58,150 nt of DNA from an uncultured Coriobacteriia bacterium (GTDB lineage: Bacteria > Actinomycetota > Coriobacteriia > Anaerosomatales > PALSA-660), in NCBI GenBank assembly GCA_903831865.1, contig CAIKZH010000003.1, forward strand, positions 1-58,150, written 5' to 3'. This document shows positions 21,861-50,068 of this stretch, piece after piece. Under the pieces are notes generated by a model. That model worked only from the letters and a program-made list of their open reading frames with translations, did not search any database and had not been told where the DNA came from. The translations under genes and the position numbers were made by a program. Within the stretch, counting starts at the first letter, position 1. Each line of letters opens with the position of its first letter.

Positions 21861-21955
21861 CGTTACCGCGAAACGCCCAGATTCGGGCGCAAAGAAGGGC
21901 GCCTGGCAGGCAGGGTCGGGGTGTCAGGAGGCTGGAGATTCGACCCCCCTTACCC
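21861..21955 (-). other. Putative cos/packaging-initiation region of the prophage
   Basis: GGGTAAGGGGGGTCGAATCTC...GACCC...CGCG motif of the kind found upstream of P27 terS in HK97-like phages; repeated at 47486 and 49975. Confidence 0.6.
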
Positions 21956-22275
21956 TAATGGGCCCAGCAAACGCTAGGCACGCAGTTACCTCGAGTGTGT
22001 GCTGCGTCCCTGCGGTGCGACGGGCAGTTCATTTGGGCGCTGCCGCCCGTTGCGGGAGTCGCCGATGGCTGCCCCATCGTGTCCAACGGCATAAGACGGC
22101 AGGGATGTTGCATGGAGGTTACGTATGCGGCGAGCTGGCGCGGTCACTCTCAGCCAGTTCCGTACTGTCGGCTGTCGGGCGCACGAATCCAAGGCCCACT
22201 GGAGTAGTCTGAATCCCGGAGTCGCATCAGCTCCCCGTCATCGGCGCAAGCCGTCCAGCGCAGTCGAGAACCGAC

Positions 22276-23433
22276 TTGGAGGTCGCCCTCTTGGGTGCAT
22301 TCGTCATAGGAATGGGCAAGACAAGGTTCGGTCCGACGTCCAAGCCCATGTTCGAACTTGCGCAGGAAGCTGCGCTCGACGCCCTCCGCGACGCCAGCCT
22401 GCAACCCGACGAGGTCGACGCAATCATCGTCGCGAACTTCCTCGGAGGCCCAAACGAGGGTCAACTTCATCTGAACTCCGTGCTCGCAGGCATCTTCCCA
22501 GGGGTCCACGTGCCAAGTTGGAGAACTGAGGCCGCCTGTGCTTCCGGAGGCGTCGCAGTCCACCAAGCGGTCCTCGCTCTTGCGAGGTACAGACGCGTCC
22601 TCGTCATTGGCGTTGAGCGTCTGAGCGGGGTAGTCGGAACCCAGCTCGCGCGAAACATCGGAATGGCAGGGGACGCGATCCTCGACGTCGCTGAGGGGGT
22701 GAGCTTTCCTGCGGCGTACGCGCTCGTGGCGCAGTCACACATGATGCGCTTTGGCACGACAACCCGCGACCTTGAGTTGGTGAGTTTGAAGAATCACGCG
22801 AACGCGAACCTCAACCCGAAGGCTCACTTCTATCTCAAGAAGGTCACGCAAGGGGACATCGACCAAGGACCCATGGTCGCCTCTCCCTTGAGGCTCTTCG
22901 ACTGCTGCCCTATCTCCGATGGAGCGGCTGCACTCGTCGTGTCTAGTGAGCGGTCACGCGACGACGACATTGAGATTAGGGGTTCCGCCTTGGCCAGTGA
23001 TGTCATTTCACTTTCGCAGAGGGAGGACACGACCAGTTTCGCGGCGACGAAGGAAGCTGCAGGCCGTGCGTATGCGGAAGCGGGAATCACCCCGGGAGAG
23101 GTGGATCTAGCCGAAGTCCATGACTGCTTTACGATTGCTGAGATCGTCGCGATGGAGGATCTCGGTCTATGTCGCCCAGGAGAGGCCGTCGACGCGATTC
23201 GTGCGGGAGACAGCGGAATCAATGGCCGCCTCCCTGTGAACCCCAGCGGCGGATTGAAGGCGGGCGGTCATGCAATCGGCGCCACCGGAGTGAGCCAGAT
23301 TTGCGAGATTGTGCTGCAGCTTCGAGGAGCCGCCGGCCTGAGGCAGGTGCCTGGAGCGCGAGTGGGAGTCGCGCACAGCGTCGGCGGAGTCGGCGGCACG
23401 AGTGCCGTCCATGTGCTGGGGGCCGTGCGATGA
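22276..23433 (+). CDS. Thiolase (SCP2/archaeal-type acetyl-CoA C-acyltransferase)
   Basis: EAACASGG, KNHANA..NP.A, DCCPISDGAAA, AEVHDCFTIAE, NPSGGLKAGGH.IGATG. Confidence 0.92.
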   Translation: MEVALLGAFVIGMGKTRFGPTSKPMFELAQEAALDALRDASLQPDEVDAIIVANFLGGPNEGQLHLNSVLAGIFPGVHVPSWRTEAACASGGVAVHQAVLALARYRRVLVIGVERLSGVVGTQLARNIGMAGDAILDVAEGVSFPAAYALVAQSHMMRFGTTTRDLELVSLKNHANANLNPKAHFYLKKVTQGDIDQGPMVASPLRLFDCCPISDGAAALVVSSERSRDDDIEIRGSALASDVISLSQREDTTSFAATKEAAGRAYAEAGITPGEVDLAEVHDCFTIAEIVAMEDLGLCRPGEAVDAIRAGDSGINGRLPVNPSGGLKAGGHAIGATGVSQICEIVLQLRGAAGLRQVPGARVGVAHSVGGVGGTSAVHVLGAVR

Positions 23434-24533
23434 GTCTCTACAAGTGCCCGGAGTGTGGCCGTTCTTACCGCTACTCAGTGAGCGTGTGCAGCTGGTGCCA
23501 CATCCCGCTCGTCGAAGAGGCATGGGAAGGGGCGACCGCAGTCGCAGTCTCCGAAGTCTTGGTGCCGATGTTGGGACACGAGGACGTGCCTTACTGGTGT
23601 GTCTTGGCCCGAACGCACGAGGGCTACAACTTGATTCTGAAGAGCGACGTGGCGGTTTCCGTGGGCGACGCGATGTCCGCCGTCTCAGATGACACGATGC
23701 TGTCAGAGGTAGGAGTCATCGGCAGCGGCGTGATGGGCTCGTCAATCGTGGAGCTGCTTCTGACTCGAGGACATCGCGTTGTATGGCTCGGCCGGACCTC
23801 GGCGGGCTTGACCCGAGCCAAGGTGCGGGTTCTTGACCGCTTGGGACGAACCCAGGACGAGGTCGAACTCCAGTCCTCGGCGCAACGTCTCACAATCTCC
23901 AATGACGACGCCGCCCTAGCGGCGTGCGATGTAGTCATCGAAGTTGTTGTCGAGCAATTGCAGGCAAAGAAGGACGCCTTGCGCAACGCTGAAGCCGCGA
24001 TGCGCAGCGATGCCATCCTCGCAACCAATACATCTGGCCTGTCTCTGGACGACCTGGCGGCCGGCCTCGCGAGGCCAGAGAAGTTCGGCGCGCTCCACTT
24101 CTTCAACCCGGCAACACGCATGCGCCTGGTCGAGACTGCGGTATGCTCGCGAACCAGCCAGCAAACGTCACTCGAACTGGATCGATTCGCGCGCTCACTC
24201 GGCAAGATTCCTGTCCGGGTCGCCGCTACCCCGGCCTTCGCGGTCAACCGCGCGCTGATGCCACTCTTGAACGAGGCGGTTCGCGAGCTGGAGGAGAATG
24301 TGGCGGACGCGGCGTCGATCGATGAAGCCGTGAGGCTCGGACTGAACCATCCAATGGGACCGCTCGCGCTTGCCGACCTTATCGGCTTGGACGTCCTTGT
24401 TGAGATCATGGACAACCTCGCGGACCGCCTCAGTGACGAGACATACAGACCGCGCCCGTTGATTCTTCGCATGGTCGCCGCCGGTGAGCTTGGACGCAAG
24501 TCCGGCAAGGGCTTCTACGAATACGCGAAATAG
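23430..24533 (+). CDS. 3-hydroxyacyl(butyryl)-CoA dehydrogenase with N-terminal DUF35-like Zn-ribbon/OB domain
   Basis: CPECG...CSWC N-terminus; GVIGSGVMG, ATNTS, HFFNP, NHPMGPLALADLIGLD, LGRKSGKGFYEY. Confidence 0.88.
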   Translation: MSLYKCPECGRSYRYSVSVCSWCHIPLVEEAWEGATAVAVSEVLVPMLGHEDVPYWCVLARTHEGYNLILKSDVAVSVGDAMSAVSDDTMLSEVGVIGSGVMGSSIVELLLTRGHRVVWLGRTSAGLTRAKVRVLDRLGRTQDEVELQSSAQRLTISNDDAALAACDVVIEVVVEQLQAKKDALRNAEAAMRSDAILATNTSGLSLDDLAAGLARPEKFGALHFFNPATRMRLVETAVCSRTSQQTSLELDRFARSLGKIPVRVAATPAFAVNRALMPLLNEAVRELEENVADAASIDEAVRLGLNHPMGPLALADLIGLDVLVEIMDNLADRLSDETYRPRPLILRMVAAGELGRKSGKGFYEYAK

Positions 24534-24547
24534 AGCTCTCCGGGCTG

Positions 24548-25831
24548 CTAGAACTTGAAGAAGAGCTTTCGGCGGTAGAGGAACTCAGCCAGCAGCAGGA
24601 ATCCTCCGAGTTCAAGCGCGGAGAACAGGAGCGTCGCCGCAGTTGGTGACATGACCTTAGTCATCGCCCTCGCAATGAGCGCGGCCAGAGTCGTAACGTG
24701 TCCATGCCAGTCCAAGCGAATCAACCCGGTTGTCGCGGCGAACGCATTTTCGCCGATGAACATAAGAAGCGCGTTCCGGCCCAGAGGCACAAGCCAACGC
24801 CACCCCTTGGTTTTGCCCTTCATGTCGAGCCACCAATAGAGAAGGCCGAAAGCAAGGGTGGCAATTCCCGAGCTAACGAGCACGAAGGAAGCCGTCCAGA
24901 TGTACTTGTTGACGGGGAGGCCGATCTGGCCGAGCACGACTCCAGCGATGATGCCGACGATGCCCAGGGCAATCGTGGGGCGGACGATCTTGCCGGACCC
25001 GTGGTCCCCAACCACGAACTTGCCAAGCGTGAGACCGAGTAGGATCTGGGCGCTGACGGAGAGCAGACCGAGTGTGCCGTCGGGATCGAAGCCCGAAGCC
25101 TCATAAGTGTGATGAAGCCCCCAAAGCGTCTTGTCCACCCAGCCGGCGAGTGACGTGTGCTCGAGGACGGCCACTGACCCTGGGCCAGCCGGATTTGCTG
25201 TCCACGCGCCAGGTATTACGCCCGGCGCGTGGACATATAGAATCAGTACAGTGTGGATTGCGAGGAGGATGGCTGCGGCGCTGAGGGTCCACTTCCAGTC
25301 TTTGCGTATGAAGAACCATGCGACCCACGAGCCGATCGCGATTCGTTGTAGGACGCCCATCACCCGCAACATGCGGAAGGGCTCCACAAGGCTGATCCTG
25401 AAGTACGACACATCGTACTTGTAGAATCCCAGCGCCACCCCGATGGCGAAAAGGATCAGGACTCTCTTGACGAACTGCTTCGTGACCTGATCGTAGTTCT
25501 CATCGGTCAGCTTCCTCGCTGAGAATGCGAGGGACATGCCGACCGCAAACATGAACGCGGGCGCGATTGTGTCGGCTAGGTGGAATCCGTTCCACGCAGG
25601 GTGCAGAAGCCACCAAGGCGTCGCAGCTGCGATCAGCGGATGGTCCATGTAGATCATCAGACCAACGACGATTGCACGAAGGATGTCCAGCGACATGATC
25701 CGCGGCCGCGTTGCTTGAACGAGCGGGAGAACGTCAGTCGGAGGAGCGGTCACGGGATTTGCCGCGGCTTTGGGCACGGGGATGCTCCCAGGATCGGTGG
25801 CGAGCGGACGGCAGCAAGGGACAGACGGCAT
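24548..25831 (-). CDS. HGSNAT-like membrane acyltransferase (start uncertain)
   Basis: RIMSLDILR, H..WNGFHLAD.I.PAF.F.VG, GVLQRIA, DPDG.LG, PVNK.IWT.SFVL, LGRNAL. Confidence 0.88.
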   Translation of the reverse strand: MPSVPCCRPLATDPGSIPVPKAAANPVTAPPTDVLPLVQATRPRIMSLDILRAIVVGLMIYMDHPLIAAATPWWLLHPAWNGFHLADTIAPAFMFAVGMSLAFSARKLTDENYDQVTKQFVKRVLILFAIGVALGFYKYDVSYFRISLVEPFRMLRVMGVLQRIAIGSWVAWFFIRKDWKWTLSAAAILLAIHTVLILYVHAPGVIPGAWTANPAGPGSVAVLEHTSLAGWVDKTLWGLHHTYEASGFDPDGTLGLLSVSAQILLGLTLGKFVVGDHGSGKIVRPTIALGIVGIIAGVVLGQIGLPVNKYIWTASFVLVSSGIATLAFGLLYWWLDMKGKTKGWRWLVPLGRNALLMFIGENAFAATTGLIRLDWHGHVTTLAALIARAMTKVMSPTAATLLFSALELGGFLLLAEFLYRRKLFFKF

Positions 25832-25893
25832 GATAGTATACGTCCGCTTTCGGGGCACGGCCTTCGGTGCCGCGAACCGATAGGAGGGCTCAC

Positions 25894-27396
25894 ATGTCTC
25901 CATATGCTCAGGATGTCGCGACTGATCGCACCGCGGCACCTTCGGATGACGAGCGTTGGAAGCGGTTGTTCAGTCGCCCGGCGTTCTGGTTGACCGCGGT
26001 TGCTGCCCTCACCGTCGTCTCGGGCACTCTTGGGGTCTATCTGTCAGGTCGGCCGACGATCGTCTCGGTGACCAACGGCACCACCTCCATGCAGGCCGCC
26101 GGCGGCGACCGCCGGATCGTGGTGACATCCGTTGCGACGTCCAAGATCCCCCTGGCCGGCGTCGATGGATTCTCCTACGTCATCGATCACAACCCCGGAA
26201 CCGTTCCCAAGCCAGTGATCAATGCGACGACGATTCCCGATAGTTCGGCCCTCGCGATCCCAACGTACGACGGGTCGGGACAAGCGAACCATCCTGGAGT
26301 GATCGACTTTCTGACCGAATTCGGCATGCGGTCTTGGGCTGGATACCGCTACTGGATGTCGATGACTCCCTATCCGCAAGACAACGATGGATACGAGAAC
26401 CCGTCTATTCTTGTCTCGAACGACGGGGTGCGCTGGACCCGCCCGAAGGGACTTCGAGCTCCGCTAGCGACTCCAAGCGGCGGGTTCGTGCACCTCAAGA
26501 ACCATCTGAGCGATCCCGACCTCGTCTATGACGCGAAAGCGAATCGACTCGTGCTGTTCTACAGGGAGAACGAAGGTAGCCAGGCTGATTCCCGGGAAGT
26601 GATCAATCGGCTAGACATATCCTTCTCCGGCGCGTCGTTCCATCTTCAGCACTACCCCGCGGTGGTCTCACGATTCACGCGAGACGTTGAAATCCTGTCC
26701 CCGGGGGTGGTGATAGACCGGCAAGGAATGTGGCACATGTGGTTCACGTCGTTCTACCCGGAGGGCGGAGCTTACCGAAAGGCAGGCATTCTCAAGTTGT
26801 TCACGTGCTCGAGTTCGGATGGCGTGCGTTGGGGAGATCCTGTTCTGTGCACGCCGAGTCTCGACGCGCGCTTCTATGGCACCAACCCGCGACCGAATCT
26901 CCCATTCGGAGGCGGTGACCACCTCTACCCCTGGCACCTCGAGGCGAAGCTAGACGGCGACAAGATACAGCTACTGATCTGTACCTCGACGCGTGCCTCT
27001 GACGCATCCCTTGACGAAGGCAGCGCGCTCTACCTAGTTGTCACAACGCCGTCGCATCCCGCTTCGCTGACGTTCCCTGTCGACGGGCCCCTCGTCGCTG
27101 GAAATCCGGACGAAGCTATCTATCGTGCCGGGTTCGTCCCCGGACCGACAGACCGCATCTGGTATAGCGCGCGCGACGACTCGCACTGGTTCAGTGCTGC
27201 CGACCCAGGCCACTGGAAGATTGCGTTTCTTGAGGGACGCGTCAGCGACGGTATCTGGAGTGCGGCGTCCTCGGCGGCGATCGAGTTGCCCATCCTGACA
27301 CCCGGCCACTGGTACTTCCACGTTCGCGCTGTTAGCGGTCTAGGAGCTTGGTCCGGTACGTCCACCAAGAAGGTGGACGTGCTATCTGCGCGTTGA
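25894..27396 (+). CDS. Membrane-anchored/exported beta-propeller glycosidase-like protein
   Basis: N-terminal TM; YDGSGQANHP, YWMSMTPYP, ENPSILVSNDG, SDPDLVYD, SSDGVRW Asp-box-like repeats; GGAGG RBS. Confidence 0.7.
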   Translation: MSPYAQDVATDRTAAPSDDERWKRLFSRPAFWLTAVAALTVVSGTLGVYLSGRPTIVSVTNGTTSMQAAGGDRRIVVTSVATSKIPLAGVDGFSYVIDHNPGTVPKPVINATTIPDSSALAIPTYDGSGQANHPGVIDFLTEFGMRSWAGYRYWMSMTPYPQDNDGYENPSILVSNDGVRWTRPKGLRAPLATPSGGFVHLKNHLSDPDLVYDAKANRLVLFYRENEGSQADSREVINRLDISFSGASFHLQHYPAVVSRFTRDVEILSPGVVIDRQGMWHMWFTSFYPEGGAYRKAGILKLFTCSSSDGVRWGDPVLCTPSLDARFYGTNPRPNLPFGGGDHLYPWHLEAKLDGDKIQLLICTSTRASDASLDEGSALYLVVTTPSHPASLTFPVDGPLVAGNPDEAIYRAGFVPGPTDRIWYSARDDSHWFSAADPGHWKIAFLEGRVSDGIWSAASSAAIELPILTPGHWYFHVRAVSGLGAWSGTSTKKVDVLSAR

Positions 27397-27458
27397 CAGC
27401 GACCATCGCACTCCGCTTGCGCCCGAATCCGCCCATCCCCACTACCCGCGCTGCGAGG

Positions 27459-28289
27459 TCAGCGGATGGGCGCCGCAAGGACGCCCACCGTGGTCATGAG
27501 GTTGAGACAGACGCGGCGAAGCGAGTCGCCCTCTGGCAAGGGGATTACGAGACCAGGCTGTTGAGGCAGTGAGACCTCGTCTGGCCAGATTTGAAACCTC
27601 CCGTCCATGAGGACAAGATAGGCGCGGCGTGCCCGTTCCAGTTCACTGTCGCTGATCCGGTGCGCAGCCGGGTCCGAATCGTCGCTTCTCGGCAACCGCG
27701 CCAGCGCCGAGTAGCGTGCTGCGAGAAGGTCCAGACGTGCCCTCGCGTTCTCGGCGCGTCGCACGAGACCGCGGGGACGAGCCTCGCCTGACAGGGCACG
27801 GGAGAGGTCTCCTCGGTCGACCTGCTCCCCAGCTAGGAGACGGGCAACGCGATTCGTCAGCTCCAAACTGGCGGCGAAAGCTGACACGTTGTGAACGGAT
27901 GCGTCGACCAGAGCGCTGGCCGCATCACATGGCTTCACGCTGTACCTGTCGCGCCATGTCTGGAGATCCCTTCGGATCTGACGCATCGTCACGTAGCGGT
28001 CTCCGTACCAGAGCCAAACGAACACTGGAACGTTGGCCAGGTCCTCGATGTACCTCATGCCCGCTCGCCGTCTGTCGAGCAGTGTCAACAGCAATCGAAG
28101 CTGTGCTTGGGGCCATTTCGCGCAGCGTTCGCCGTCCCGGCCATCAACGGGTCTCGACGCGCACTCGAGTAGCCCCAGATCAGACCATTCGCGAATCAGG
28201 CGGGGAGTAACGGGCGTCCCCGCAGCGTGCGCCGCAACGACAAGATCGTCAGCTGTGTACATCGCCGCTCTCAAGATCGCCGAATACAC
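27459..28289 (-). CDS. Hypothetical protein with MerR-like HTH N-terminus
   Basis: YTADDLV...TPRLIREWSDLGLL. Confidence 0.5.
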   Translation of the reverse strand: MYSAILRAAMYTADDLVVAAHAAGTPVTPRLIREWSDLGLLECASRPVDGRDGERCAKWPQAQLRLLLTLLDRRRAGMRYIEDLANVPVFVWLWYGDRYVTMRQIRRDLQTWRDRYSVKPCDAASALVDASVHNVSAFAASLELTNRVARLLAGEQVDRGDLSRALSGEARPRGLVRRAENARARLDLLAARYSALARLPRSDDSDPAAHRISDSELERARRAYLVLMDGRFQIWPDEVSLPQQPGLVIPLPEGDSLRRVCLNLMTTVGVLAAPIR

Positions 28290-28548
28290 CTACCGCTCTA
28301 GCGCTCTTCCTGGCGTTCACCTCGTACGGGAACGAATCATAACGCTCGGCTCAAAGCGACGCGGCGTGGACGCGCAGTTCGCATGAGAGCGAGTGGCGCC
28401 TCTTCTGGGGCCAGTTCGAACTGCTGCCGCTCCGCTAATCCGTGGTTCGAGTTCTGCGGTGATGAACTGTCTTCGGGTAGCGGCGGCAAGGTAACCGCGG
28501 CGCAGGTTCTCCTCTACGATCGATCCGCCGTCGGACAGCGGCCCGTGA

Positions 28549-29330
28549 CTACTTTCGACCGACCCTCTCCTCACCCAGCGCCTTCAGGTCCGCGAGCAGC
28601 TGCGCGGTGTTGAATCCCTCGGGGCTCCTGCCCCCGCTCAGCACCTCGTCCGAGACGTAGGCGATCGCCTCGTCGCAGCACGCGGCCAGGAAGGAGCTCG
28701 CCATCTTCTGCACGCGTCCCACGTCACGCAGACGAGGTCGCGTCTGTGCGTCACGATCGGCACGTGGTGGCCGCCGAGGGTCGCGGTGTTGGTGCGCTTC
28801 ACCGTTCAGGCGCGTCCCGCGTTGAACTCGTCCATCGCGTAGGCAGGCAGCTGCAGGCCGATGCCCACGGCGCCGAACAGCCAGCATGCGGTCAGGATCT
28901 CGCTCACGTTGCCGCCCTCGATGGCGAGGTAGGCGGCGATCTTGTGCACGTGACCGTCCGCGTCGGTGATGCCGCTCTTGCGCCGCCACGACGCTGCCTT
29001 GGCCATGTCCGTGCCACGGTCGGTGGAAGGTTTGCCGGGGACATAGCCGGTCAGCGCCGAGTACGCGGAGATGACGCTCGCGGTGTCGAATCGGCAGGCC
29101 AGCGTCGGCACCGATTCGTCACACCACACCATGTGCTCGTGCGCCGCGCCGGCAAGCACGCAGTCGCCGACCGAGTCGTTGCCGAGCATGCCCCACGATA
29201 CGACCGTCTTCTCATGGCCGAAAGTCGCAGGCGGATGCGGCAGGACCGTCTTGTCCACGTAGTCGGCCAGGCGGAAGGTCGGCGGCATGGCTGAGAGTGT
29301 GCGGCCGGGGTGGAACTCGATCATCTTCAT
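28549..29330 (-). pseudogene. Papain-like cysteine peptidase pseudogene
   Basis: WGMLGNDSVGDCVLA and GGHHV..VTW motifs; in-frame TGA at 28806-28808 and a frameshift near 28720. Confidence 0.7.
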
Positions 29331-29361
29331 GCTCTTCCTCGTCCTCTCTTGCTGCCGGTTC

Positions 29362-29664: not shown

Positions 29665-30875
29665 GACCGGGTCGCCTCCTTGCCGGTGAAGGTCTCCCAG
29701 CGCTTCACGATCACGTCGCAGTAGGCGGGGTCGAGTTCGAGGCCGTAGCAGACGCGCCCGAGTTGCTCGGCGGCGATGAGCGTGGTGCCGGATCCGAGGA
29801 ACAGGTCGAGCACGCAGTCCCCGGTCTTCGACGAGTGATCGAGCGCTCTGGCCACGAGCGCGACCGGCTTCATCGTCGGGTGCTCCTCGCTGCGTCTCGG
29901 CCGAGGTATCTCCCACACGTCGTCGAGATCCCGGCGGTCGCAGAAGGTCGACGCACCCTTCTTCGGCCAGCCGTACCAGATCGGCTCATAGCGCCTGTGG
30001 TACTTCGAGCGGCCCAGCACGAAAGTGTCCTTGACCCAGATCACCGTCGCTGACCAGTGAAGGCCGGCGCCGCGGAGCGCGAAGTCGAGAGATGGCCACT
30101 CCGATGCTCCCAGCACGCAGTAGACGTCGCCTTTGGCGAAGGCGGCGATCTGCAGCGCGACCATGCCGAGGAAGTCGTGGAAGTCTTGCGGCGAGAGGTT
30201 GTCGTTCTTGAGGCCAGGACGCTGACGGTGCCGCGGGTTGGAGTCCAGGCCGATGGCCACGTTCCAAGGCGGGTCCGTAAACACCATGTCCGCGTCTCGG
30301 TCCGCCATCAGGCCCTTCACGTCATCGGAACTGGTCGCATCGCCGCACAGCAGCCGGTGATTCCCGAGCATCCACAGGTCGCCCGCCTTCGTGACCGGAT
30401 CCTCTGGCGGCTCGGGCGCCTCGTCCTCGATCACCTCTGGCCCGGCGGACGGGGCCGCAGTGAACAGCAACTCGAGCTCGGAGTGCTCGAAGCCGGTCAG
30501 GTCCATGTCGAACTCGCCCGTGTCGAGGTCGCTCAGCAGGTCCTTCAGCATCGGCAGGTCAGGCGCGGCCAGCTCCGCGATGCGGTTGTCGGCGATGAGG
30601 TCGGCCCACTCCGCGGCCTCGCTCTCGTAGTCCTGCCAGTCGACAGGCACCTGCTCGAGCTTGAGGACGCGTGCGGCTTCCAGCCGGCCGTGGCCTCTCA
30701 CCACGAACCCGGAGCGCGTCGAGACCGTGATCGGGGCGCGCCAGCCCTGGGCGGAGATGATCTTGGCGAGCAGCTCGATCTGGGAAGCGGGGTGCGTGTT
30801 GGGGTTGCGAGGGTTGCCGGTGACTCGCTCGATGGGCACGAGCTCGTCGTGGGCGCACAAGACGTCGGGGCTCAC
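29661..30875 (-). CDS. ParB-N-terminal DNA methyltransferase (N4/N6)
   Basis: NPRNPNTH, GHGRLEA, IADNR; HRLLCGDAT, FTDPPW, HPTMKPV, DLFLGSGTT. Confidence 0.92.
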   Translation of the reverse strand: MSPDVLCAHDELVPIERVTGNPRNPNTHPASQIELLAKIISAQGWRAPITVSTRSGFVVRGHGRLEAARVLKLEQVPVDWQDYESEAAEWADLIADNRIAELAAPDLPMLKDLLSDLDTGEFDMDLTGFEHSELELLFTAAPSAGPEVIEDEAPEPPEDPVTKAGDLWMLGNHRLLCGDATSSDDVKGLMADRDADMVFTDPPWNVAIGLDSNPRHRQRPGLKNDNLSPQDFHDFLGMVALQIAAFAKGDVYCVLGASEWPSLDFALRGAGLHWSATVIWVKDTFVLGRSKYHRRYEPIWYGWPKKGASTFCDRRDLDDVWEIPRPRRSEEHPTMKPVALVARALDHSSKTGDCVLDLFLGSGTTLIAAEQLGRVCYGLELDPAYCDVIVKRWETFTGKEATRS

Positions 30876-38867: not shown

Positions 38868-38915
38868 GGTTTCCTAAACCATGTGCCGCAGGTTCGAATC
38901 CTGCCGGGGGCACCA
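38868..38915 (+). other. Attachment site: duplicated 3' half of tRNA-Arg(CCT)
   Basis: GGT-TTCCTAA-ACC...GCAGGTTCGAATCCTGCCGGGGGCACCA; no D-arm or acceptor 5' half upstream. Confidence 0.85.
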
Positions 38916-39067
38916 CGCCTGACCTGCTGTTTCTCCGGAATCAGGCTCCGGATTCGAGGCCCGAGATGCCCCTTTGGGCACACTCCGGGCACACAACACG
39001 GTGCATCCAGACGACGCTGGACGCCTCTTTGCGCAGTTCAGCGCCTGCATCGGCACAAGCAGCCGCA

Positions 39068-40770: not shown

Positions 40771-41663
40771 GACGTGGCGCCCGCTCCCTCCGAGTTGCCC
40801 GCGTCCTTCTGGCCCCTGCGGTAGATGCGCTGACGACATCTCTCGCTGCACCAGTCCCGACTCGCTCTCGCCCCCGTCGCGTCCCAGGGAAGCCCGCAGC
40901 CCTCGCAGGTGCGGTAGTCGCGGTTGCCGTCGATCGCGAGCGCGAGCTGCAACCACATCGCACCCAGAAGCGAACCGACCCGATAGGTCAGGCGCAGCCC
41001 CGCGCCGTAGGACTTGTTCGTGGCAGCGAGAGCGGGCGTGACATCCGCGTGCTTGAGGCCCTGGTTCACCTCGCTTGCCAGCATCGCCTGCACGATCTCG
41101 CGGTCGCTGCTGCTGGCGTCCACGATCAGTAGGCAGGAGTCCATGAGCTCGCCCTTCCAGCACTGCGGCGGGCCATTGGGATAGATGCCGAGCTCATCTC
41201 CCACGCGACGTGTCTCCCACATGCGTTCGATCAGCTCTGAGGGATTGCCGCCTCGCAGCTCGTCCCACATCTCGATGGCGAGCGCCACGCTCTCGCGCGC
41301 CTCGCCCCAGTCATCCTCGTCTCCCGCGTAGCCCTCAGGCAGGCCGCGCGCGGTCTTTGAGATCCTGTCGGGCAGAGGGTCGAGACTCCCATAGGCGCGC
41401 GCGAAGTCCGCGAACGCCTCGGGGGTGTCCTCGATCGCCGCGAAGATCCGGAACAGCGCCGGCTCATCTTTGAGCGGCGCGTAGGACTCGCCCTCGACGC
41501 CCACGAGCGCGACGGAGTCGCCGGCCGGAACAGCAACCTTGCCGTGCTGCGAGGCCCCGTGGTGAAGCGTCTTCCACTCCGCTTCCTGCAGCCGATGCCA
41601 CCGGAATGAGACCAGCTCCGCGATCGCCGGTTCCTGTCGCGCAAGTGTCACAGTATTGCTCAC
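40767..41663 (-). CDS. CGNR zinc-finger regulator-like protein
   Basis: SLLGAMWLQLA...CEGCG...DWCSERCRQRIYR. Confidence 0.7.
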   Translation of the reverse strand: MSNTVTLARQEPAIAELVSFRWHRLQEAEWKTLHHGASQHGKVAVPAGDSVALVGVEGESYAPLKDEPALFRIFAAIEDTPEAFADFARAYGSLDPLPDRISKTARGLPEGYAGDEDDWGEARESVALAIEMWDELRGGNPSELIERMWETRRVGDELGIYPNGPPQCWKGELMDSCLLIVDASSSDREIVQAMLASEVNQGLKHADVTPALAATNKSYGAGLRLTYRVGSLLGAMWLQLALAIDGNRDYRTCEGCGLPWDATGARASRDWCSERCRQRIYRRGQKDAGNSEGAGATS

Positions 41664-41746
41664 CTCATACTGTTGTTGTGTCCGTCGAGCGCATCATACA
41701 CTGGACGTGGCCTAGGCGAGAAGTCAAATGAGGAAAGGAAGTCGCG

Positions 41747-41962
41747 ATGCTCCGGCTCGAAAGGGAAAGGGTGCGTGCGGGACTGAGCCGCTCGGCACTC
41801 GCGCGTCTCGCTCTGATGCACTCGGCCACGGTCGGACAGATCGAGAACGGCTACATCGGGCGCCCCTACCCCGTGCAGCTCGCCAAGCTCGCGAGTGCGC
41901 TCATGTTCGAAGGTGAGCCGGCAGATCTGCTGGACCAGGTGCGCGCAGATGACGACGAGTAG
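41747..41962 (+). CDS. XRE HTH protein
   Basis: ERVRAGLSRSALARLA.....VGQIENG; GAAAGGA RBS. Confidence 0.8.
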   Translation: MLRLERERVRAGLSRSALARLALMHSATVGQIENGYIGRPYPVQLAKLASALMFEGEPADLLDQVRADDDE

Positions 41963-42179
41963 CGCACCGAAGCTCGAGGATCTGCCTGACGTGATCCCCG
42001 TAAAGACGGTAGCCGCCTTCCTCGGGTGCGCGGAGAACACCTGCTACGCCGCGATACGGGCCGGCGCGCTGCCGGCCGTGAGACTCGGCCGTCGGCTGCT
42101 CGTGCCGAAGGCGAGCCTGATGCGCTTCCTTCACGGCACAACGCACACCGAGTCCACGATCGACACACAAGGCCGATGA
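41949..42179 (+). CDS. Excisionase/AlpA-like HTH_17 protein
   Basis: LPDVIPVKTVAAFLG...YAAIRAGALPAVRLGRRLLVPK. Confidence 0.85.
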   Translation: MTTSSAPKLEDLPDVIPVKTVAAFLGCAENTCYAAIRAGALPAVRLGRRLLVPKASLMRFLHGTTHTESTIDTQGR

Positions 42180-42186
42180 CGCGGCC

Positions 42187-43020
42187 ATGAAGCTCTCGGA
42201 CCGCATGCTTCGAGCCGACGTGTTCACCGACGGTCGCCTGATCCGCGTCTCGCCGGGTGCGCGGCTGCTGGCCATGGTGCTCGATCCGGTTGCTGAGGCC
42301 ACGGGAGTGGTTCGCCGGGACCCCGACGAGATCCGCAGCAGCGCGGCGCTGTTCCTGGCTGACGAGGAGGGCATGCCCCCAACCGCGGAGCAGATCGAGA
42401 AGTGGGTCGAGGAGCTCGTGGCCCGTGGCTGGGCGCTGGCCTATGAAGTCGGGTCCATGCGACTGCTCTACCTGCGGGGATTCGGCGCCCGTCAGAAGGG
42501 CGCCAACGTCTGCATAGGAGTGAGCCAGACCACCGGGGAGATCGAGCAACATCTGCCGACGCCGCCGTGCGTGACACTCGTCCCCCACCATGAGAAGACG
42601 AGGGACAAAGCGGGACACGAGGTGGAGCTGCGGCTTCGCAAGATGCTGCCCCGCCACTGCCAGGACGCGGGTGCCTGCCCGTGTGAGAGGTTCACCAACC
42701 CTTCGCCTACCCACCCCGAACAAGTAAGTAGAGGTAATGGGATTGAACTTGACCTGAGGGCATTTGAAATCCAACCAGATGAAGATGTGGATGGTCATCT
42801 CAGTGAAGGGGAGCGCGAGGGGGAGCTCGACGCGGAGCTTGCGAGACTCTCGGCCGAGTTCGGTCCCGAGATCGCGACGCAGGCGCTCTTCAAGGAACAG
42901 CTCACCTCGAGGAAGTGCGACCCTCCCAGAGCTGTGAGCGCAGCCATGGTTCGAGTGCGATGTGAGGCGCTGGTGCAGCAGGACATAGAAGCAAGGGCGC
43001 ACGGAGAAGGCTTCGGGTGA
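42187..43020 (+). CDS. Phage-type replication initiator-like protein
   Basis: RMLRADVFTD.RL..VSPGARLL...D wHTH-type N-terminus; acidic low-complexity linker. Confidence 0.6.
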   Translation: MKLSDRMLRADVFTDGRLIRVSPGARLLAMVLDPVAEATGVVRRDPDEIRSSAALFLADEEGMPPTAEQIEKWVEELVARGWALAYEVGSMRLLYLRGFGARQKGANVCIGVSQTTGEIEQHLPTPPCVTLVPHHEKTRDKAGHEVELRLRKMLPRHCQDAGACPCERFTNPSPTHPEQVSRGNGIELDLRAFEIQPDEDVDGHLSEGEREGELDAELARLSAEFGPEIATQALFKEQLTSRKCDPPRAVSAAMVRVRCEALVQQDIEARAHGEGFG

Positions 43021-43208
43021 GCGCGTCGGGCTGCGGTCGCCGGCTCAAGGGGCACCTCTTCCCCGACGGGGCGCGGCGGGAGTGCGATCACGTCGTCGCG
43101 CTCTCGGATGGCGGGTCGAACGCCGGGGAGAACCTGCGCTGCCGTTGCCTGGCCTGCCACTATCCCAAAACCGCGAAGGATCGCGGGGTCCGGGGGCAGG
43201 ACAGGTGA
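43017..43208 (+). CDS. Minimal HNH endonuclease, homologous to the prophage HNH
   Basis: CGRRLKGHLFPDG..RECDHVVALSDGGSN..ENLRCRCLACH. Confidence 0.75.
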   Translation: MSASGCGRRLKGHLFPDGARRECDHVVALSDGGSNAGENLRCRCLACHYPKTAKDRGVRGQDR

Positions 43209-43439
43209 GACTCGTTGACGGCGGAGACTGTGAGGCCCATGGTCCGGACATCACCGGCCCCCTGGGGCCGCCGACCTTCTCGTCCGCCGCACGCCGCCGC
43301 GGGCACGCAGGCGCCTCACGAAGCGAGCAGTCGTATCATTTGCTTGCACCGAGTGCTTGTGACCTGCCTCGCGCAGGTCCGCGCGATCCTTGCTAGGCGT
43401 CGTGGGCCGACTTCCTTTCCGGATGCCTGGGGGTATCGG

Positions 43440-44936
43440 ATGGACATGAGATCTGAGCGTCGGGCGCTCGACAAGCTGTACAAGCGCCGAGACCGGTATG
43501 ACATTCCCGATTGGCAGCGCGACGAAGTCTGGTCGGTCGACAAGAAGCGTCGACTCATAGACAGCATCCTTCGCGGCTGGAAGCTGCCGAAGTTCTACTT
43601 CCAGAAGACCCACGACAACCCCGATGAGTTCGACGTCGTTGACGGCCAGCAACGCCTGACAGCGATTTGGGAGTTCCTTGATGGGGAGTTCTCGCTGTCG
43701 GCGGAATCGGCCACTGAGTTCGGCGGCGAGCGTTATGAAGACCTCCAGGAGGACGTCTCGGACGCGTTCGACGACTACGAGATCGAGTACGACGAGATTA
43801 CCAACGCGACGGACGAAGACGTCAAGGAGTTCTTCCAGAGACTCCAGGAGGGTCTGCCCCTGACGAGCAGCGAGAAGCTCAACTCGGTCCACAGCAAACT
43901 CCGCGACTTCTGCGCCAAGGCCGCGAAGGATCCGTTCTTCTCGAAGACGACCGTGATTGCGGACAAGCGCTATGCACACTTTGACATCGTCGCCAAAGTC
44001 ACCGCCCTCGAGATCGAGGGGCTGGACGCGGGTCTTCGCTATGAGGACGTCCGAAAGGTCTTCATCGACAACGCGTCGTTCTCGTCGCAGTCTGCGGCTG
44101 CCAAGCGAGTCAGCGGAGCGATCAAGTTCCTGCGGGAGAACTTCCCTGAATCGTTCAAGCCCTTCCGCAATCGCACGATTGTCCAATCGGTCATCACACT
44201 TGTCTGCCACCTCCGTGAGGCGGGGCTCACGGCAGAGCAAGGCGAGATGCTGAGGGACTTCATCGTGTTCTTCCTGGGTGAGCTCAACAGGCAGGTGGAA
44301 CTCGGACAGAAGGCGACCGATTCGGACTTCTTGGACTTCCAGCGCACGGTCAATGCGAACGTGAAGACTGGTGCCAGAACCCGGCAGACGATCCTGCTGC
44401 GCAAGCTCTTCCAGAGGCATCCTCAGTTCTTCAGCGCCCTGAGCCAGTCGGCAGATCTTGCGGCGGGAGTCAATGACAGCATCGGGAAGCTTGCGACCTC
44501 TGTGCGAGAGTTGGTCGCCGCAAGCAACGACCGATATGCAGCGCGAAATGGCGGCGACCTATTCAAGCCTACGAACAAGACGGCGAGCTCCCTAGCTGGC
44601 CTTGGGGTGCCGGTCACGTCGGTCGAGGAGTACAAGGCATTCATCGACAACCTGTACTTCGTCTTCTGGGAGGGGCCCGGCCAGCGCCTCGATGGCCAGG
44701 TCCCATCTTCGTTCGTCGATGTGAACGACCTGAGGACGATGCTCCAGCACGACGTCGATCACGGCAAGGGCGCCAAGGCTGCCGCAAAGCGCAGACATCT
44801 GGGATCCGTCTTCGCACGGTATGCAGGCGTGTCGTCGCCTGATGCGATAGACCCTGCGGCCTTTCCCGTCGTGCAGGCGAATGTACTTGGCGCCCTCGAG
44901 TCGGACTTGAGCGCGCTTGCCAAGTCGCTCATTTAG
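43440..44936 (+). CDS. DUF262 (GmrSD/ParB-like) protein with HEPN-like C-terminus
   Basis: PDWQRDEVW, LIDSILRG, VVDGQQRLT, FQRLQ.G.PL; C-terminal RTMLQH (Rx4H). Confidence 0.8.
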   Translation: MDMRSERRALDKLYKRRDRYDIPDWQRDEVWSVDKKRRLIDSILRGWKLPKFYFQKTHDNPDEFDVVDGQQRLTAIWEFLDGEFSLSAESATEFGGERYEDLQEDVSDAFDDYEIEYDEITNATDEDVKEFFQRLQEGLPLTSSEKLNSVHSKLRDFCAKAAKDPFFSKTTVIADKRYAHFDIVAKVTALEIEGLDAGLRYEDVRKVFIDNASFSSQSAAAKRVSGAIKFLRENFPESFKPFRNRTIVQSVITLVCHLREAGLTAEQGEMLRDFIVFFLGELNRQVELGQKATDSDFLDFQRTVNANVKTGARTRQTILLRKLFQRHPQFFSALSQSADLAAGVNDSIGKLATSVRELVAASNDRYAARNGGDLFKPTNKTASSLAGLGVPVTSVEEYKAFIDNLYFVFWEGPGQRLDGQVPSSFVDVNDLRTMLQHDVDHGKGAKAAAKRRHLGSVFARYAGVSSPDAIDPAAFPVVQANVLGALESDLSALAKSLI

Positions 44937-45011
44937 CAGTGTGCGACCACAGGTAGATCTCAGGACGCTCGACGCCTAGCGCATACTGGTGGCCACGGGC
45001 ACGAGGCTTGA

Positions 45012-45941
45012 GTGCAACACACAGGGAGACAGGGGGGCGAAGACTTGGCGAGCACCGCGGGCCTACTGCGGCAGGCGCTCGATGCCGTCACGGACGGACT
45101 TGATAGTCTCATTCGGACCCTGCCCATAAAGGACAATCGCTGGCATGAGCCGGGCATCGTCTATGTCGCCCCGGACTACGCCTGGGGAGACATCGCAGCC
45201 GGCGAGCGCGCCCAACAGCTATCACTCAAGCGCTCCTACGACCTTGTGTCCGAGCGTCTGCGGCTGCTAGTGGCTGGAGCGCCTGAGGAACTAACCCGCC
45301 AGCTTGCGGATGCGGACGTCGCCTTTCGAGTGTGGGTTGAGCTCGACTACTCGAACTGGCACTTGTCGCCCAGCTCTGATTCAAATGTAGAAGCGCTCCG
45401 AGCGGATGCGGCCGCAATCTCAAGAATTCTGGACATCGTTGAACGCCTCGGTGCCGGAGAGACGTTCGCGATTCCGGACACGAATAGCCTGCTGAGGGCG
45501 CCTGACCCTGTCGCCTACCGTGACGTACTTGGGCAGAACGAGTTCACCTTCACTCTCCTGCCGACGGTGCTCGGCGAACTTGATCGGTTGAAGATCGAAC
45601 ACAGGAATCCCGACGTGCGCGACAAGGCCAAAGCCGTGATTGGCCGCATCAAGGGATGGCGCAATCAGGGGACGCTGTCTGCTGGCGTGAAGGTGGATCA
45701 GTCGATTACCGTCCGCGCCCTGCACGCGGAGCCGGACATGAACGACACGCTGTCGTGGCTCGACCCGGCCGTCGACGATGATCGGATCATCGCGGGCGTT
45801 CTCGCAATCCAGGCGGAGCATCCCGGGGCGCGAGCCGTCCTCATAACCGGCGACATCAACCTGATGAACAAGTCGGATGCCGCGCTAGTGGAGACCGCAG
45901 AGGCTCCCCAACGGGCGCGTCCAGCGGACGGCGCAGGCTAG
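45012..45941 (+). CDS. PIN-domain ribonuclease
   Basis: IPDTNSLL, TVLGELDRLK, DDDRII, LITGDINL. Confidence 0.8.
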   Translation: MQHTGRQGGEDLASTAGLLRQALDAVTDGLDSLIRTLPIKDNRWHEPGIVYVAPDYAWGDIAAGERAQQLSLKRSYDLVSERLRLLVAGAPEELTRQLADADVAFRVWVELDYSNWHLSPSSDSNVEALRADAAAISRILDIVERLGAGETFAIPDTNSLLRAPDPVAYRDVLGQNEFTFTLLPTVLGELDRLKIEHRNPDVRDKAKAVIGRIKGWRNQGTLSAGVKVDQSITVRALHAEPDMNDTLSWLDPAVDDDRIIAGVLAIQAEHPGARAVLITGDINLMNKSDAALVETAEAPQRARPADGAG

Positions 45942-45995
45942 GCGAGCGACGAAGAGAAGCGTCGCGGCCCGCCGCAGACGCGCTGACCGTTGGGC
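45906..45995 (+). repeat. attC-like integron cassette site 1
   Basis: CCCAAC...GCGCGTC // GACGCGC...GTTGGGC, overlapping the PIN gene end. Confidence 0.7.
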
Positions 45996-46197
45996 GGAAT
46001 CGCTGGCCCGTCGTCGGCGTTTCGCAACGGGTCGTTGCAGAAGGAGGTGCGCGGTCTTGCAGGCGGCCAGGCGACTGATCGTTCGCGCACTCAACGGGCT
46101 CTGCGGCTTGGTCGACGCGGTCGCTTACCGGCCGGTCGTGGTTCGCTTCGGCAGGCCACTCCCGCACCGCTGGAACTGCAACTTGGCGCGACTCTCG

Positions 46198-46518
46198 ATG
46201 CGGCTGGATGAGCGCTGGGGTACCGGATACTGGAACGGAGACGGTCCGCAGCCGGGGGAGCCGTGCGAGGCGTGCGGCCGGAGGCCGGCGCTGTTCTTCA
46301 TCGGCGGCTACGCGGACGATCCCGACTTGGAAGAGCCCGTTGAGGTGGGCGACGACGACTACTTCTTCGCTCACCGGGAGGTCGCCCTCTGCGGCTGGTG
46401 CAAGCTCCCCCCACACGACGCCCCCTTCGGAAGTGAGGCGGAGTTGCAGCAGGCGCTTCGGGCGGCGGCTGAGAGGTCGACGCGTTGGGGATGGCGCTGG
46501 AGGCCGACTTGGGAGTAG
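46198..46518 (+). CDS. Small Zn-ribbon hypothetical protein (cassette)
   Basis: CEACG...LCGWC; lies between two attC-like sites. Confidence 0.45.
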   Translation: MRLDERWGTGYWNGDGPQPGEPCEACGRRPALFFIGGYADDPDLEEPVEVGDDDYFFAHREVALCGWCKLPPHDAPFGSEAELQQALRAAAERSTRWGWRWRPTWE

Positions 46519-46547
46519 CTGGGCTCGGCACAGTCTGCGGGAGATCC

Positions 46548-46634
46548 GCCCAACAACCGCATCCTTAGCGGACGGCGTAAGCTGGAGCAAGAAGGAAGTG
46601 CTGTGGTCCGCCGCAGATGCAGACCACGTTGGGC
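46548..46634 (+). repeat. attC-like integron cassette site 2
   Basis: GCCCAAC...GCATC..GCGGAC // GTCCGC..GATGC...GTTGGGC. Confidence 0.75.
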
Positions 46635-46653
46635 GTGCCAAAGGGGGGAGCTG

Positions 46654-46929
46654 GTGGACGATTCCAAGTATGAGCGTCGCGTGACGCTGCTCTGCCCGAC
46701 CTGCGGATCAGACCAGTTCGCTTTCGACGATGACGATGAATCCGCTCCAGTGACATGCTCGAACTGCGGTCGTCAGACCACGCGTGAGGCCCTCATCGAG
46801 GAGAACTCCGAAAACATCGAGTCTCACGTTGCCGAGATCGGCGAAGAGGTCGTCGCAGACGCAGCCAAGGACCTGAACAAGTCGCTTCGCGATGCCTTTC
46901 GCGGCAGCAAGAACATCCGGCTTGAGTGA
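46654..46929 (+). CDS. ECs_2282-like putative zinc-binding protein
   Basis: LLCPTCGSDQF...VTCSNCG...LIEENSENI. Confidence 0.7.
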   Translation: MDDSKYERRVTLLCPTCGSDQFAFDDDDESAPVTCSNCGRQTTREALIEENSENIESHVAEIGEEVVADAAKDLNKSLRDAFRGSKNIRLE

Positions 46930-47402
46930 TGGCTCTCTCCTTCACCATCAGCGACGTGCTTGCCGCCCTCGCACTGGTTCTCTCATTGGTTGCGACCGTT
47001 GCGACCGCCCGCTTCAACGCGCGGCAGAAGTCCCTAATCGAGAGTCAGGAGCTGCTGAACCGGCGGCTATTGGCTCGTGAGCAAAGCGAGGCTGCAGCGA
47101 GCGAGCAGGCTGACTTGTCGGCCAGCCTTGTGAAAGTCGGGCAGAGCAACTGGCGCTTGAAGATCTACAACCGGGGCAAGGCGGCGGCGCGCAACGTTAC
47201 GATCACCACGGCGGAAGATGACGACTTGCTGATCCAGGAGGATGTGGTTTCGAAGTTTCCGCTGGAGCTTCTGGAGCCGGCGCACGGGGTGGACCTGATC
47301 TCACTCATCCATTTGGGCTCCAAGAGCAAGCACGAGGTCACCCTTGGCTGGAGCGACGACTTCAGGGACTCCAACACAAAGACCGTGTACGTGACGATCT
47401 AG
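46926..47402 (+). CDS. N-terminally membrane-anchored hypothetical protein
   Basis: Hydrophobic N-terminus, coiled coil, Ig-like LKIYNRGKAAARNV. Confidence 0.65.
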   Translation: MMALSFTISDVLAALALVLSLVATVATARFNARQKSLIESQELLNRRLLAREQSEAAASEQADLSASLVKVGQSNWRLKIYNRGKAAARNVTITTAEDDDLLIQEDVVSKFPLELLEPAHGVDLISLIHLGSKSKHEVTLGWSDDFRDSNTKTVYVTI

Positions 47403-47485
47403 CGTAGCAGTGAACCTCTGGTTCAAGCTCGAAGAGCAACACGTGGGACCTGCCTCGTCACGACTCCAATCCAGAGAGCGGCACA

Positions 47486-47535
47486 GGGGTACGGGGGGTG
47501 GAATCTCTAGCGCCCTCTTGCGCCGACCCTGCCTG
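47486..47535 (+). repeat. Partial copy of the cos-like motif
   Basis: GGGGTACGGGGGGTGGAATCTCTAGC...CCGACCCTGCCTG. Confidence 0.6.
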
Positions 47536-47624
47536 GCCGCTCTTGTGGCTAGCGCCCATGTGCAGGCTCTGGCAATGAATCGCGCGGACGCCGTTACGCA
47601 AGCCGGTGACAGAGCCTCGGGCGA

Positions 47625-47897: not shown

Positions 47898-47977
47898 GAT
47901 TGCCCTCCTTGCTTGCCGTTGCTGACGAATGCTCGCGTACCAGGATTACCTTGAGCAGTGCCAACGGACTCGACCAG

Positions 47978-49627: not shown

Positions 49628-49929
49628 CAGGCGTCCCGGCTCGGCCTGGCGAACGGGCACGCCTCTTGGGTCGCCCACTTCACGTAGTGCGGGCACTCCC
49701 CGCGATCCCAGTAATACAGAGACGAGTACTCCGTGTCGTGCTGCTCCGATGACGCCGGTACGCCGGGCGGACGGCGCGATCCGAGCGGACTCCACTGCGG
49801 ATGATGACACCGCCGGTCCTCGAGATAGGCGCAGTAGTGGTAGCGCGAGCCTTGACCGCTGTCGCGGTCAAGGAGACCGAGCACTCCGTCAACCGCCGTC
49901 TTCTTCGCGACCATTGATCCCCCCGGCAC
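49627..49929 (-). CDS. Small Cys-rich hypothetical protein
   Basis: Coupled to the downstream gene; several Cys/His residues. Confidence 0.35.
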   Translation of the reverse strand: MPGGSMVAKKTAVDGVLGLLDRDSGQGSRYHYCAYLEDRRCHHPQWSPLGSRRPPGVPASSEQHDTEYSSLYYWDRGECPHYVKWATQEACPFARPSRDA

Positions 49930-49974
49930 GCCGGCCTCGCGTCTTGGCGACAGTATCCGCCAACCCGAGGAGAA

Positions 49975-50068
49975 GGTAAGGGGGCTGCAATCTCTAGCGG
50001 CCTGCCGCGCCGACCCTGCCTGCCAGGCGCCCTTCTCTGCGCCCGAATCTGGGCGTTTCGCGGCAACG
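49975..50068 (+). repeat. Near-complete copy of the prophage cos-like region
   Basis: 50010-50068 matches the reverse complement of 21861-21919 at 57/59 nt. Confidence 0.85.

Follow-up and report, generated by a model that had tools for sequence, protein, structure and literature searches.

The 58,150-nucleotide (nt) stretch analysed here (the window; GenBank assembly GCA_903831865.1, contig CAIKZH010000003.1, positions 1 to 58,150), which comes from an uncultured Coriobacteriia bacterium, raises the question of why a noncoding sequence at the head of the packaging genes of a prophage (prophage 1, about 3166-38927) recurs in the adjoining genomic island. An initial annotation had read the repeat as a cos-like (cohesive-end) sequence, present twice in the neighbouring element, and had proposed that this element is selected to be cut and packaged by the prophage terminase. 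Our analysis indicates that the repeat is part of a module of about 150 nt, which in all likelihood represents a cos region of the type known from phage HK97. That the additional copies mark phage-derived islands, and that at least one of them (copy B) is plausibly packaged by the resident prophage, is a proposal to which we give a little less than an even chance.

The claimed match between 21861-21919 on the minus strand (copy A) and 50010-50068 on the plus strand (copy B) is real, with differences at 2 of 59 positions, and 100 dinucleotide shuffles of the window yielded no match with three or fewer mismatches for the 59-nt pair. The similarity reaches 94 nt at 88% identity (21861-21954 versus 49975-50068), and the G-rich block GGTAAGGGGG..AATCTC.AGC precedes both copies, as had been stated. 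The noncoding copies are also more alike than the paralogous genes beside them (21439-21807 and 50561-50941), which agree at 63.7% of the DNA and 58% of the protein positions versus 57/59 in the core of A and B; outside this core, the two copies share 26 of 35 positions in block I and the spacer and 31 of 56 in the downstream repeat region. A third copy (copy C), which had been described as partial, is present (47488-47535 is 85% identical to B, and 47487-47535 is 80% identical to A) but is not partial, since the alignment continues to about 47612 with the same boxes, and a covariance model based on sequence only matched 47478-47577 with an E value of 3.5e-17. The three copies and their blocks are as follows.

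21808..21957, minus strand: copy A, predicted cos region of prophage 1 (covariance model E 3.0e-21; HK97 layout)
21955->21937, minus strand: block I of copy A, GGGTAAGGGGGGTCGAATC
21919->21905, minus strand: block II of copy A, CCGACCCTGCCTGCC; predicted cut at or within a few nt of 21905
21890->21874, minus strand: block III of copy A, GCGCCCGAATCTGGGCG, with a G at predicted position +21
21866-21861 and 21844-21839, minus strand: GTAACG repeats of copy A
49975..50105, plus strand: copy B, with block I at 49975-49992, block II at 50010-50024 and block III at 50039-50055 (model E 2.7e-21); like A at 57/59 from block II through block III, with diverged downstream repeats
47486..47612, plus strand: copy C, full length and of a second subtype, with block II at 47523-47535 and no g24-like gene after it

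With respect to the genome as a whole, the 11-mer GACCCTGCCTG occurs six times in the 2.155-Mb assembly (192 contigs), each time within a copy of the module, i.e., in A, B and C of the window and in copies D (C38:4047-4100), E (C156:1893-2018) and F (C133:6-66), all of them in phage or island contexts. The motif is thus not a genome-wide repeat, a possibility that the initial annotation had named as refuting. Copy E is identical to A at 52 of 59 positions, and copy F scored an E value of 1e-9 with the DNA model even though it was outside the training set. A seventh match resembling block II, on contig C39, is located inside a coding region and was rejected as a chance occurrence. Beyond this assembly, a BLASTN search with copy A gave no match in 50,697 phage records, copy A was present as DNA in none of 60 genomes of relatives, and the exact pattern AATCTCYAGC-N8-14-CCGACCCTGCCTG was found neither in the viral contigs nor in the genome contigs.

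The module consists of three primary-sequence blocks at fixed spacing, followed by short repeats, and GACCCTGC is invariant in all 14 aligned copies. Two types can be distinguished. Type I comprises A, B, E and the twin of A in an IMG/VR contig, which have the cut block and the small-terminase (TerS) site block in common and have diverged in block I, the distal repeats and the flanking genes. Type II comprises C, D and the loci L022-L024, which retain CCC at the same place and carry ATGTGCAGG or GCGTGCACAG where type I has GAATCTGGG. Copy C accordingly shows CCCATGTGCAGG in place of CCCGAATCTGGG at the position of block III, and over its first 55 nt it is identical at 52/56 positions to the C38 copy.

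No conserved fold accompanies these blocks. Rfam at its gathering score returned no match and ARAGORN no tRNA in the window, the consensus fold of the 14 copies (RNAalifold) amounts to -2.37 kcal/mol with 4 pairs and no compensatory change, and five single-sequence folds are no stabler than shuffled sequences (z-scores of -1.30 to +0.37). Block I slightly resembles a tRNA T-arm, and type I copies have short overlapping GC hairpins, but in the face of these results a structured noncoding RNA or riboregulator, which had also been named as a refuting outcome, is an extremely improbable identity of the module. Promoter and terminator scans of two regions revealed no sigma-70-like site in either and only terminator-like matches at chance level. 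Primary-sequence blocks that lack a conserved fold, an Rfam match and a sigma-70-like promoter fit a DNA site recognised by protein. A promoter or regulatory leader of the late operon, responding e.g. to a phage sigma factor or activator, would account for the constant position of the module before the first late gene, for the spacing of about 17-19 nt between GAATC and CGACC, which resembles a two-box promoter, for the TGACA box that most copies have some 20-30 nt ahead of the start codon and for a helix-turn-helix (HTH) protein of prophage 1 with weak similarity to sigma region 4. As the main function of the module it is nevertheless very unlikely, given the negative promoter scans, the retention of the module in copies C and E, where there is no gene for it to express, and the recurrence of its blocks at the ends of HK97, which are mapped and contain a biochemically defined TerS site. 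Promoter and cos functions could coexist.

The module was compared with the cos site of Escherichia phage HK97 (TerS gp1, TerL gp2, HNH protein gp74). In the parts of PMC11331095 and PMC9410871 drawn on here, HK97 TerS is described as binding positions +15 to +29 and reading G21 together with the adjacent A-tract, the HNH protein gp74 as stimulating cutting, and the overhang as a 10-nt 3' end. At its right end the HK97 record has a G-run-ATCAAATC, 21 nt and then GACC, and it ends 13 nt past the G of GACC; at its left end CCCGA followed by a T tract starts at +19, which results in a distance of 31 nt from GACC to CCCGA. In the present family, the distance from block I to GAC is 18-20 nt in 12 of 14 copies (HK97, 21 nt), that from GAC to a CCCGA(A/T)-like block is 29-31 nt in 11 of 14 (HK97, 31 nt), and the three type II copies of the alignment deviate at the bases of the TerS site. 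Common to both systems are therefore the G-run...ATC block about 20 nt before GACC, a cut region beginning at GACC, CCCGA with an A/T tract 29-31 nt further on, and the order HNH, cos, TerS, large terminase (TerL), portal, protease, capsid. With HK97 geometry, the cut in copy A is predicted at about 21905, which would put the G of CCCGAA at +21. By their position, the bases that distinguish type I from type II correspond to the contacts of HK97 TerS. The systems differ in the host phylum, in the additional zinc-ribbon gene (g24) between cos and TerS, in the GTAACG-type repeats and in the 6.6-kb cargo between HNH and cos in the window, and the ends are mapped in HK97 and predicted from sequence here.

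A second point of reference is provided by phages of Paenibacillus larvae. The record of P. larvae phage Dragolir aligns at its start with L069, a relative of the module, and the ends of this record fall within CGACGGCCC, at the position of block II. For cos phages of this host, the part of PMC6070908 consulted gives a 9-nt 3' overhang, CGACTGCCC, of which CGACGGCCC is a variant. Points of likeness to P. larvae 3' cos ends are a CGAC... overhang in the place of block II, a G-rich block upstream, where the HNH gene ends, and the start of TerS a short distance downstream. Unlike the present family, Dragolir is more compact, with the TerS start 50 bp past the end, and its block I is degenerate.

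Block I itself is widespread. Its 17-mer GGTAGGGGGGTCRAATC is present without mismatch in 53 IMG/VR contigs (L069-L121) of very different base composition. An HNH-like gene usually precedes it, and a gene with a beginning like that of a P27-type small terminase usually comes within the next 100-250 nt; crude tests detected an HNH-like motif upstream in 36 of the 53 and a TerS-like N-terminus (GR..KP) downstream in at least 18. In the HK97 record (L124), a close variant of the 17-mer is found 35-56 nt from the right end. Among the 53 contigs, two stop 26 and 30 nt past block I, where a cos end would be, but as their other ends are not TerS regions this is weak support for a cos site. In the first 100 nt of one such contig (L127), two copies of a 23-nt repeat about 30 nt apart have a CRISPR-like appearance. 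Contigs C133 (copy F) and G067:C274 terminate close to the same point, 15-18 nt past block II, and with n = 2 and repeats nearby these ends were not used as evidence. The proteobacterial-type variant L091 had no match in named phages. In the searchable open literature, with subscription papers and supplements outside the search, neither the block I string (TAGGGGGGTC) nor the HK97 block string had a relevant match, and no prior description of a cross-phylum cos layout or of g24 as an accessory was encountered.

The genomic position of copy A agrees with a cos function. Prophage 1 is apparently complete; its late module (about 3166-21807, minus strand) runs from g24, TerS, TerL, portal, protease and capsid to tail tube, tape measure, a collagen-like fibre and a CHAP lysin, and its early genes (28549-37115) include an HNH endonuclease and a DNA methylase. 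The nearest named relatives of its TerL and TerS belong to cos phages such as phiC31, phi105, S. thermophilus phages of the DT1 type and Gordonia phage Gudmit, and the actinophage-like relatives of the terminase are consistent with a host in the Actinomycetota. The features that bear on packaging and integration are listed here.

21439..21807, minus strand: g24, a zinc-ribbon and helical protein of 122 amino acids (aa), first gene past copy A
20882..21442, minus strand: small terminase of the Terminase_4/P27 type (PF05119, 3.5e-13)
19383..20885, minus strand: large terminase, TerL_ATPase and TerL_nuclease (PF03354 and PF20441)
17797-19167, minus strand: portal (PF04860)
16891-17790, minus strand: ClpP-type prohead protease (PF00574)
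15550-16872, minus strand: HK97-fold capsid protein (PF05065)
21956..28569: variable cargo segment of 6.6 kb directly upstream of copy A (thiolase, 3-hydroxyacyl-CoA dehydrogenase, acyltransferase, unknowns)
30872..31291, minus strand: HNH endonuclease of prophage 1, with homologues directly upstream of the module in four relatives
37643-38803: prophage integrase, ending beside the tRNA-Arg(CCT) 3' fragment
38869..38927, plus strand: tRNA-Arg(CCT) 3' fragment between two integrases, the presumed attachment (att) core common to prophage 1 and the island

The cargo segment has a lower GC content (0.60-0.62). In the 95%-identical IMG/VR contig, the late genes are common from exactly 21955 and the early genes up to 28570, with 6.4 kb of other DNA separating them; two further public sequencing runs contain contigs whose match likewise breaks off at both cargo edges (21955 and 28570-28575). 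Since the twin and the two runs diverge at the same edges, the 6.6-kb segment is variable cargo within a single prophage, and copy A stands in the classical position of a cos site. With its sharp edges, at 21955 and at 28570-28575, the segment is a cargo hot-spot, whose early-gene side is marked by a 74-nt inverted repeat of 82% identity (28574-28647 and 54031-54104), which recurs just past the long HNH gene of the island, before an AAA_15/AAA_21 ATPase with DUF3696. One might consequently regard the module as a site-specific recombination site for cargo cassettes, in keeping with the exact stop of homology at 21955 and 28570-28575, the different DNA between these edges and the repeat at the far boundary and past the island HNH gene. 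This is highly improbable, however, as the family has no recombinase that goes with the module, the integrases act at a tRNA-Arg site elsewhere and recombination beside a cut site is expected for cos anyway.

The association of the module with packaging genes extends to relatives of prophage 1. Homologues of g24 are rare (7 of 146 genomes of the order, including the present one, and a handful of metagenome and IMG/VR contigs), and wherever enough upstream DNA is present the module precedes them. It lies directly upstream of a g24-like gene in 15 distinct loci, among them A, B, D, the IMG/VR twin of A, G009, G001, G133, L022, L025, L026, L035, L037, G016 and G018, of which the last two were recovered by the DNA model alone and were both outside its training set. 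The usual gene order is HNH, module, g24, in some cases a methylase, Terminase_4 TerS, TerL and portal, with the HNH gene directly upstream of the module in G009 (L012), G133 (L014), L035 and G016 (L054). The term "cos-like" of the initial annotation is upheld by this synteny, by the HK97-type set of packaging and head genes and by the block-by-block layout of HK97, its basis being homology and not mapped ends.

For g24 itself, neither Pfam nor PHROGs contained a family, its AlphaFold2 model (predicted local distance difference test score, 86) gave 53 PDB matches of which none reached E<=0.001, and tBLASTN found no homologue in the 50,697 phage records. On contig C38, however, a gene for 316 aa (3003-3953; L006) encodes a g24-type zinc ribbon fused in frame to Terminase_4, and the frame is identical in two independent metagenome contigs. 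Such a fusion speaks for g24 being a functional part of the small terminase, and g24 is probably a new accessory of the terminase. The C38 fusion is an orphan, preceded by a type II cos copy and with no TerL nearby, and it adjoins a pair of defence-like genes, one of them CHAT-like as judged by eye. Type II modules go with a different TerS, represented by the C38 fusion and the gene of L022; these share 56-64% identity with the type I TerS and with each other.

From the observed sequences, copy number, synteny and match to the HK97 layout we infer where the cut would fall, which protein would bind which block and that islands may be packaged. Block II (CCGACCCTGCC...) would be the site of a staggered cut by TerL, assisted by the HNH endonuclease of the phage, and block III (GCGCCCGAATCTGGG, with a G at predicted +21 and then A/T) the recognition site of the small terminase. 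Block I (GGGTAAGGGGGGTCGAATC, about 20 nt upstream of GACC) may represent a further conserved terminase/HNH element, and g24, which could act as a detachable DNA-binding part of TerS, has a candidate site in the GTAACG repeats that precede the first gene. Copy A would then be the cos site of the apparently complete prophage 1. Copies B and E, which lie in regions devoid of head, tail and terminase genes, agree with copy A in the predicted blocks for the cut and the TerS site and are therefore predicted substrates of the prophage 1 terminase, as is the case with cos-type satellites. The homologue of g24 beside copy B and the diverged repeats could bias recognition towards the island. Copies C and D may constitute a second specificity type, matched to the fused g24::TerS on C38, and copy C is probably not a substrate of prophage 1 because it deviates at the very positions that are read by HK97 TerS and fits another TerS elsewhere in the genome. 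The proposed selection of the neighbouring element for cutting by the prophage terminase is accordingly plausible for copy B, with the same predicted cut and TerS-site blocks at 57/59, and probably does not apply to copy C. Taken jointly, the cos region, the roles of terminase, HNH and g24 and the status of B and E as predicted substrates of the prophage terminase form the best explanation, in which our confidence is somewhat better than even.

The region that contains copies B and C comprises the following features.

39583..47402: island backbone, from the integrase through g57/g58, with no structural genes
39583-40956, minus strand: island integrase (PF00589)
41747-42179: HTH repressor-like regulator and Xis-like gene
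42187-43020: replication initiator (phrog_1408, 5.4e-8)
43017-43208: short HNH gene
43344-44936: GmrSD
45012-45941: PIN protein
46654-47402: g57/g58, followed by copy C
50160-50525: ArsR-type HTH gene, between copy B and g61
50561..50941, plus strand: g61, a 126-aa homologue of g24 (58% of aa) downstream of copy B

Between C and B lies a convergent gene for 605 aa with a Glucodextran_B domain (47978-49795, minus strand), and three direct repeats of about 90 nt (71-83% identical) downstream of this gene, at 47641-47892, could each hold a short minus-strand open reading frame (ORF). Past g61, the window continues with a GIY-YIG-like gene (by eye), Mrr-like genes, a long HNH protein, an AAA ATPase and an IS3 element at its end. 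A scan of 24 of the 25 predicted genes of 39068-58150 against Pfam or PHROGs revealed no capsid, portal, tail, lysis or terminase family, and no paralogues of the late genes of the prophage were found in this region. The genes g57/g58 were considered as conserved last genes before cos and rejected, as homologues occur in G095 and G099 without a module after them and none was found in IMG/VR.

An island of this composition resembles known satellites. The part of PMC6739421 (Fillol-Salom et al. 2019) used here describes for the Escherichia coli island EcCICFT073 two cos sites, in which cosQ and cosN resemble those of the helper, and the protein Rpp, a relative of the DNA-binding domain of TerS that redirects the helper terminase. 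As in EcCICFT073 and other cos-type phage-inducible chromosomal islands (PICIs) of E. coli, an integrase is combined with two cos sites whose cleavage part resembles that of the helper, and capsid genes are lacking; as in EcCICFT073, a small protein related to the DNA-binding part of TerS (here g61) is encoded beside cos. Further traits of PICIs are the regulators and the island's own replication initiator, with no virion-gene families among the scanned genes, and the Rpp-type trait is given by g61, which is 58% identical to g24, and by the fusion of a g24 homologue to Terminase_4 on C38. In contrast to EcCICFT073, the TerS-site block of the island is the same as that of the prophage, so that only the distal repeats (31/56) differ, and unlike Rpp, g61 is a zinc-ribbon and not a winged-helix protein. 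Cos-type Staphylococcus aureus pathogenicity islands (SaPIs) such as SaPIbov5 are reportedly packaged with the cos of the HNH-type staphylococcal phages phi12 and phiSLT. The situation here is similar in that a candidate satellite carries the cos of a putative helper with HNH, P27-type TerS and an HK97-fold head, and different in that no gene for capsid size (Ccm-like) was recognised and the hosts are unrelated.

A more conservative explanation accepts the cos site and considers B, C, D, E and F as inert relics of decayed related prophages, with the identity of A and B due to recombination or gene conversion. The high identity of A and B could indeed stem from recent recombination instead of selection, and the exchange of cargo exactly at the 5' edge of the module in related phages indicates frequent recombination there. 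The lack of a packaging gene downstream of C and E, the position of copy F against an IS256-type transposase at a contig end, the IS3 element that ends the window and the failure to find an attR for the island point in the same direction. On the other hand, C and E retain the entire module of about 130-150 nt as far as the point where the start codon has been lost. The reading frames of g61, the island integrase and the replication gene are open and intact, and the identity between A and B does not extend beyond the predicted blocks for the cut and the TerS site, both flanks having diverged. We therefore regard wholesale decay as unlikely, with a probability that is still appreciable.

Several observations weigh against the interpretation favoured here, i.e., an HK97-type cos region whose copies B and E are substrates of the prophage terminase. 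Contigs from 18 public runs hold the region, and their breaks at 21890-21919 are what the shared 31-mer gives, so the cos identity is based on homology and not on mapped ends. The geometry of Dragolir is more compact than that of HK97, which gives the predicted cut a margin of error of about 5 nt. No Pfam family matched the first 117 residues of HK97 TerS at E<=0.01, which leaves the equivalence of the TerS sites to position and sequence only. The HNH gene lies 9 kb from copy A in the window, owing to the cargo (two to three genes plus the 6.6-kb cargo in between), and 13 of 15 weak matches of the DNA model in other genomes, probably due to chance, have no packaging genes nearby. The counts for the 53 block I contigs were obtained with crude regular expressions and a naive ORF picker, and the far ends of two IMG/VR contigs that stop near block II do not begin with a TerS region. 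As to the island, a single tRNA-Arg fragment is present in the window and none to the right, the right boundary was not found and mobility is only presumed; copies C and E, without a downstream gene, may be relics, as may copy F.

If the cos assignment is correct, it allows the positions of the cut and of small-terminase binding to be predicted from sequence, in a testable form, for phages of a family that has been seen only in metagenomes. The HK97 cos layout, which has been defined biochemically and is recognisable across phyla, could help to locate the genome ends of uncultured cos phages. Islands with cos copies and a load of defence genes are candidate satellites in the Actinomycetota, where few satellites are known, and the small zinc-ribbon protein, which is sometimes fused to TerS, is probably a new terminase accessory. 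In its widest form, the proposal would be that the islands represent a new family of cos-type satellites in uncultured Actinomycetota, which copy the cleavage and TerS-recognition blocks of the helper and steer packaging by a satellite-specific zinc-ribbon protein that serves as a detachable DNA-reading part of the small terminase, that two specificity types (A/B/E and C/D) coexist in one genome and that block I (GGTAGGGGGGTCRAATC) is a nearly universal, hitherto undescribed recognition element of HNH-assisted terminases, from HK97 of E. coli to Firmicutes and Actinomycetota. This combination is offered tentatively, as it is unlikely to hold in its entirety.

Two further observations concern the surroundings of the elements. 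Defence-type genes are dense around them (102-2988, 43344-45941, 50929-52211 and 54271-56739), comprising Eco57I-like and MmeI-like methylase genes with a RAMA-domain protein, GmrSD, a PIN protein, GIY-YIG-like (by eye) and Mrr-like nucleases and an OLD/AbiEii-like ATPase. The 3' part of tRNA-Arg(CCT), with a length of 57-59 nt, occurs three times, at 38869-38927 of the window, at C188:10742-10800 (the intact tRNA) and at C156:20769-20825, and in two of these cases it lies beside integrase genes or fragments, which suggests an integration hot-spot with tandem elements.

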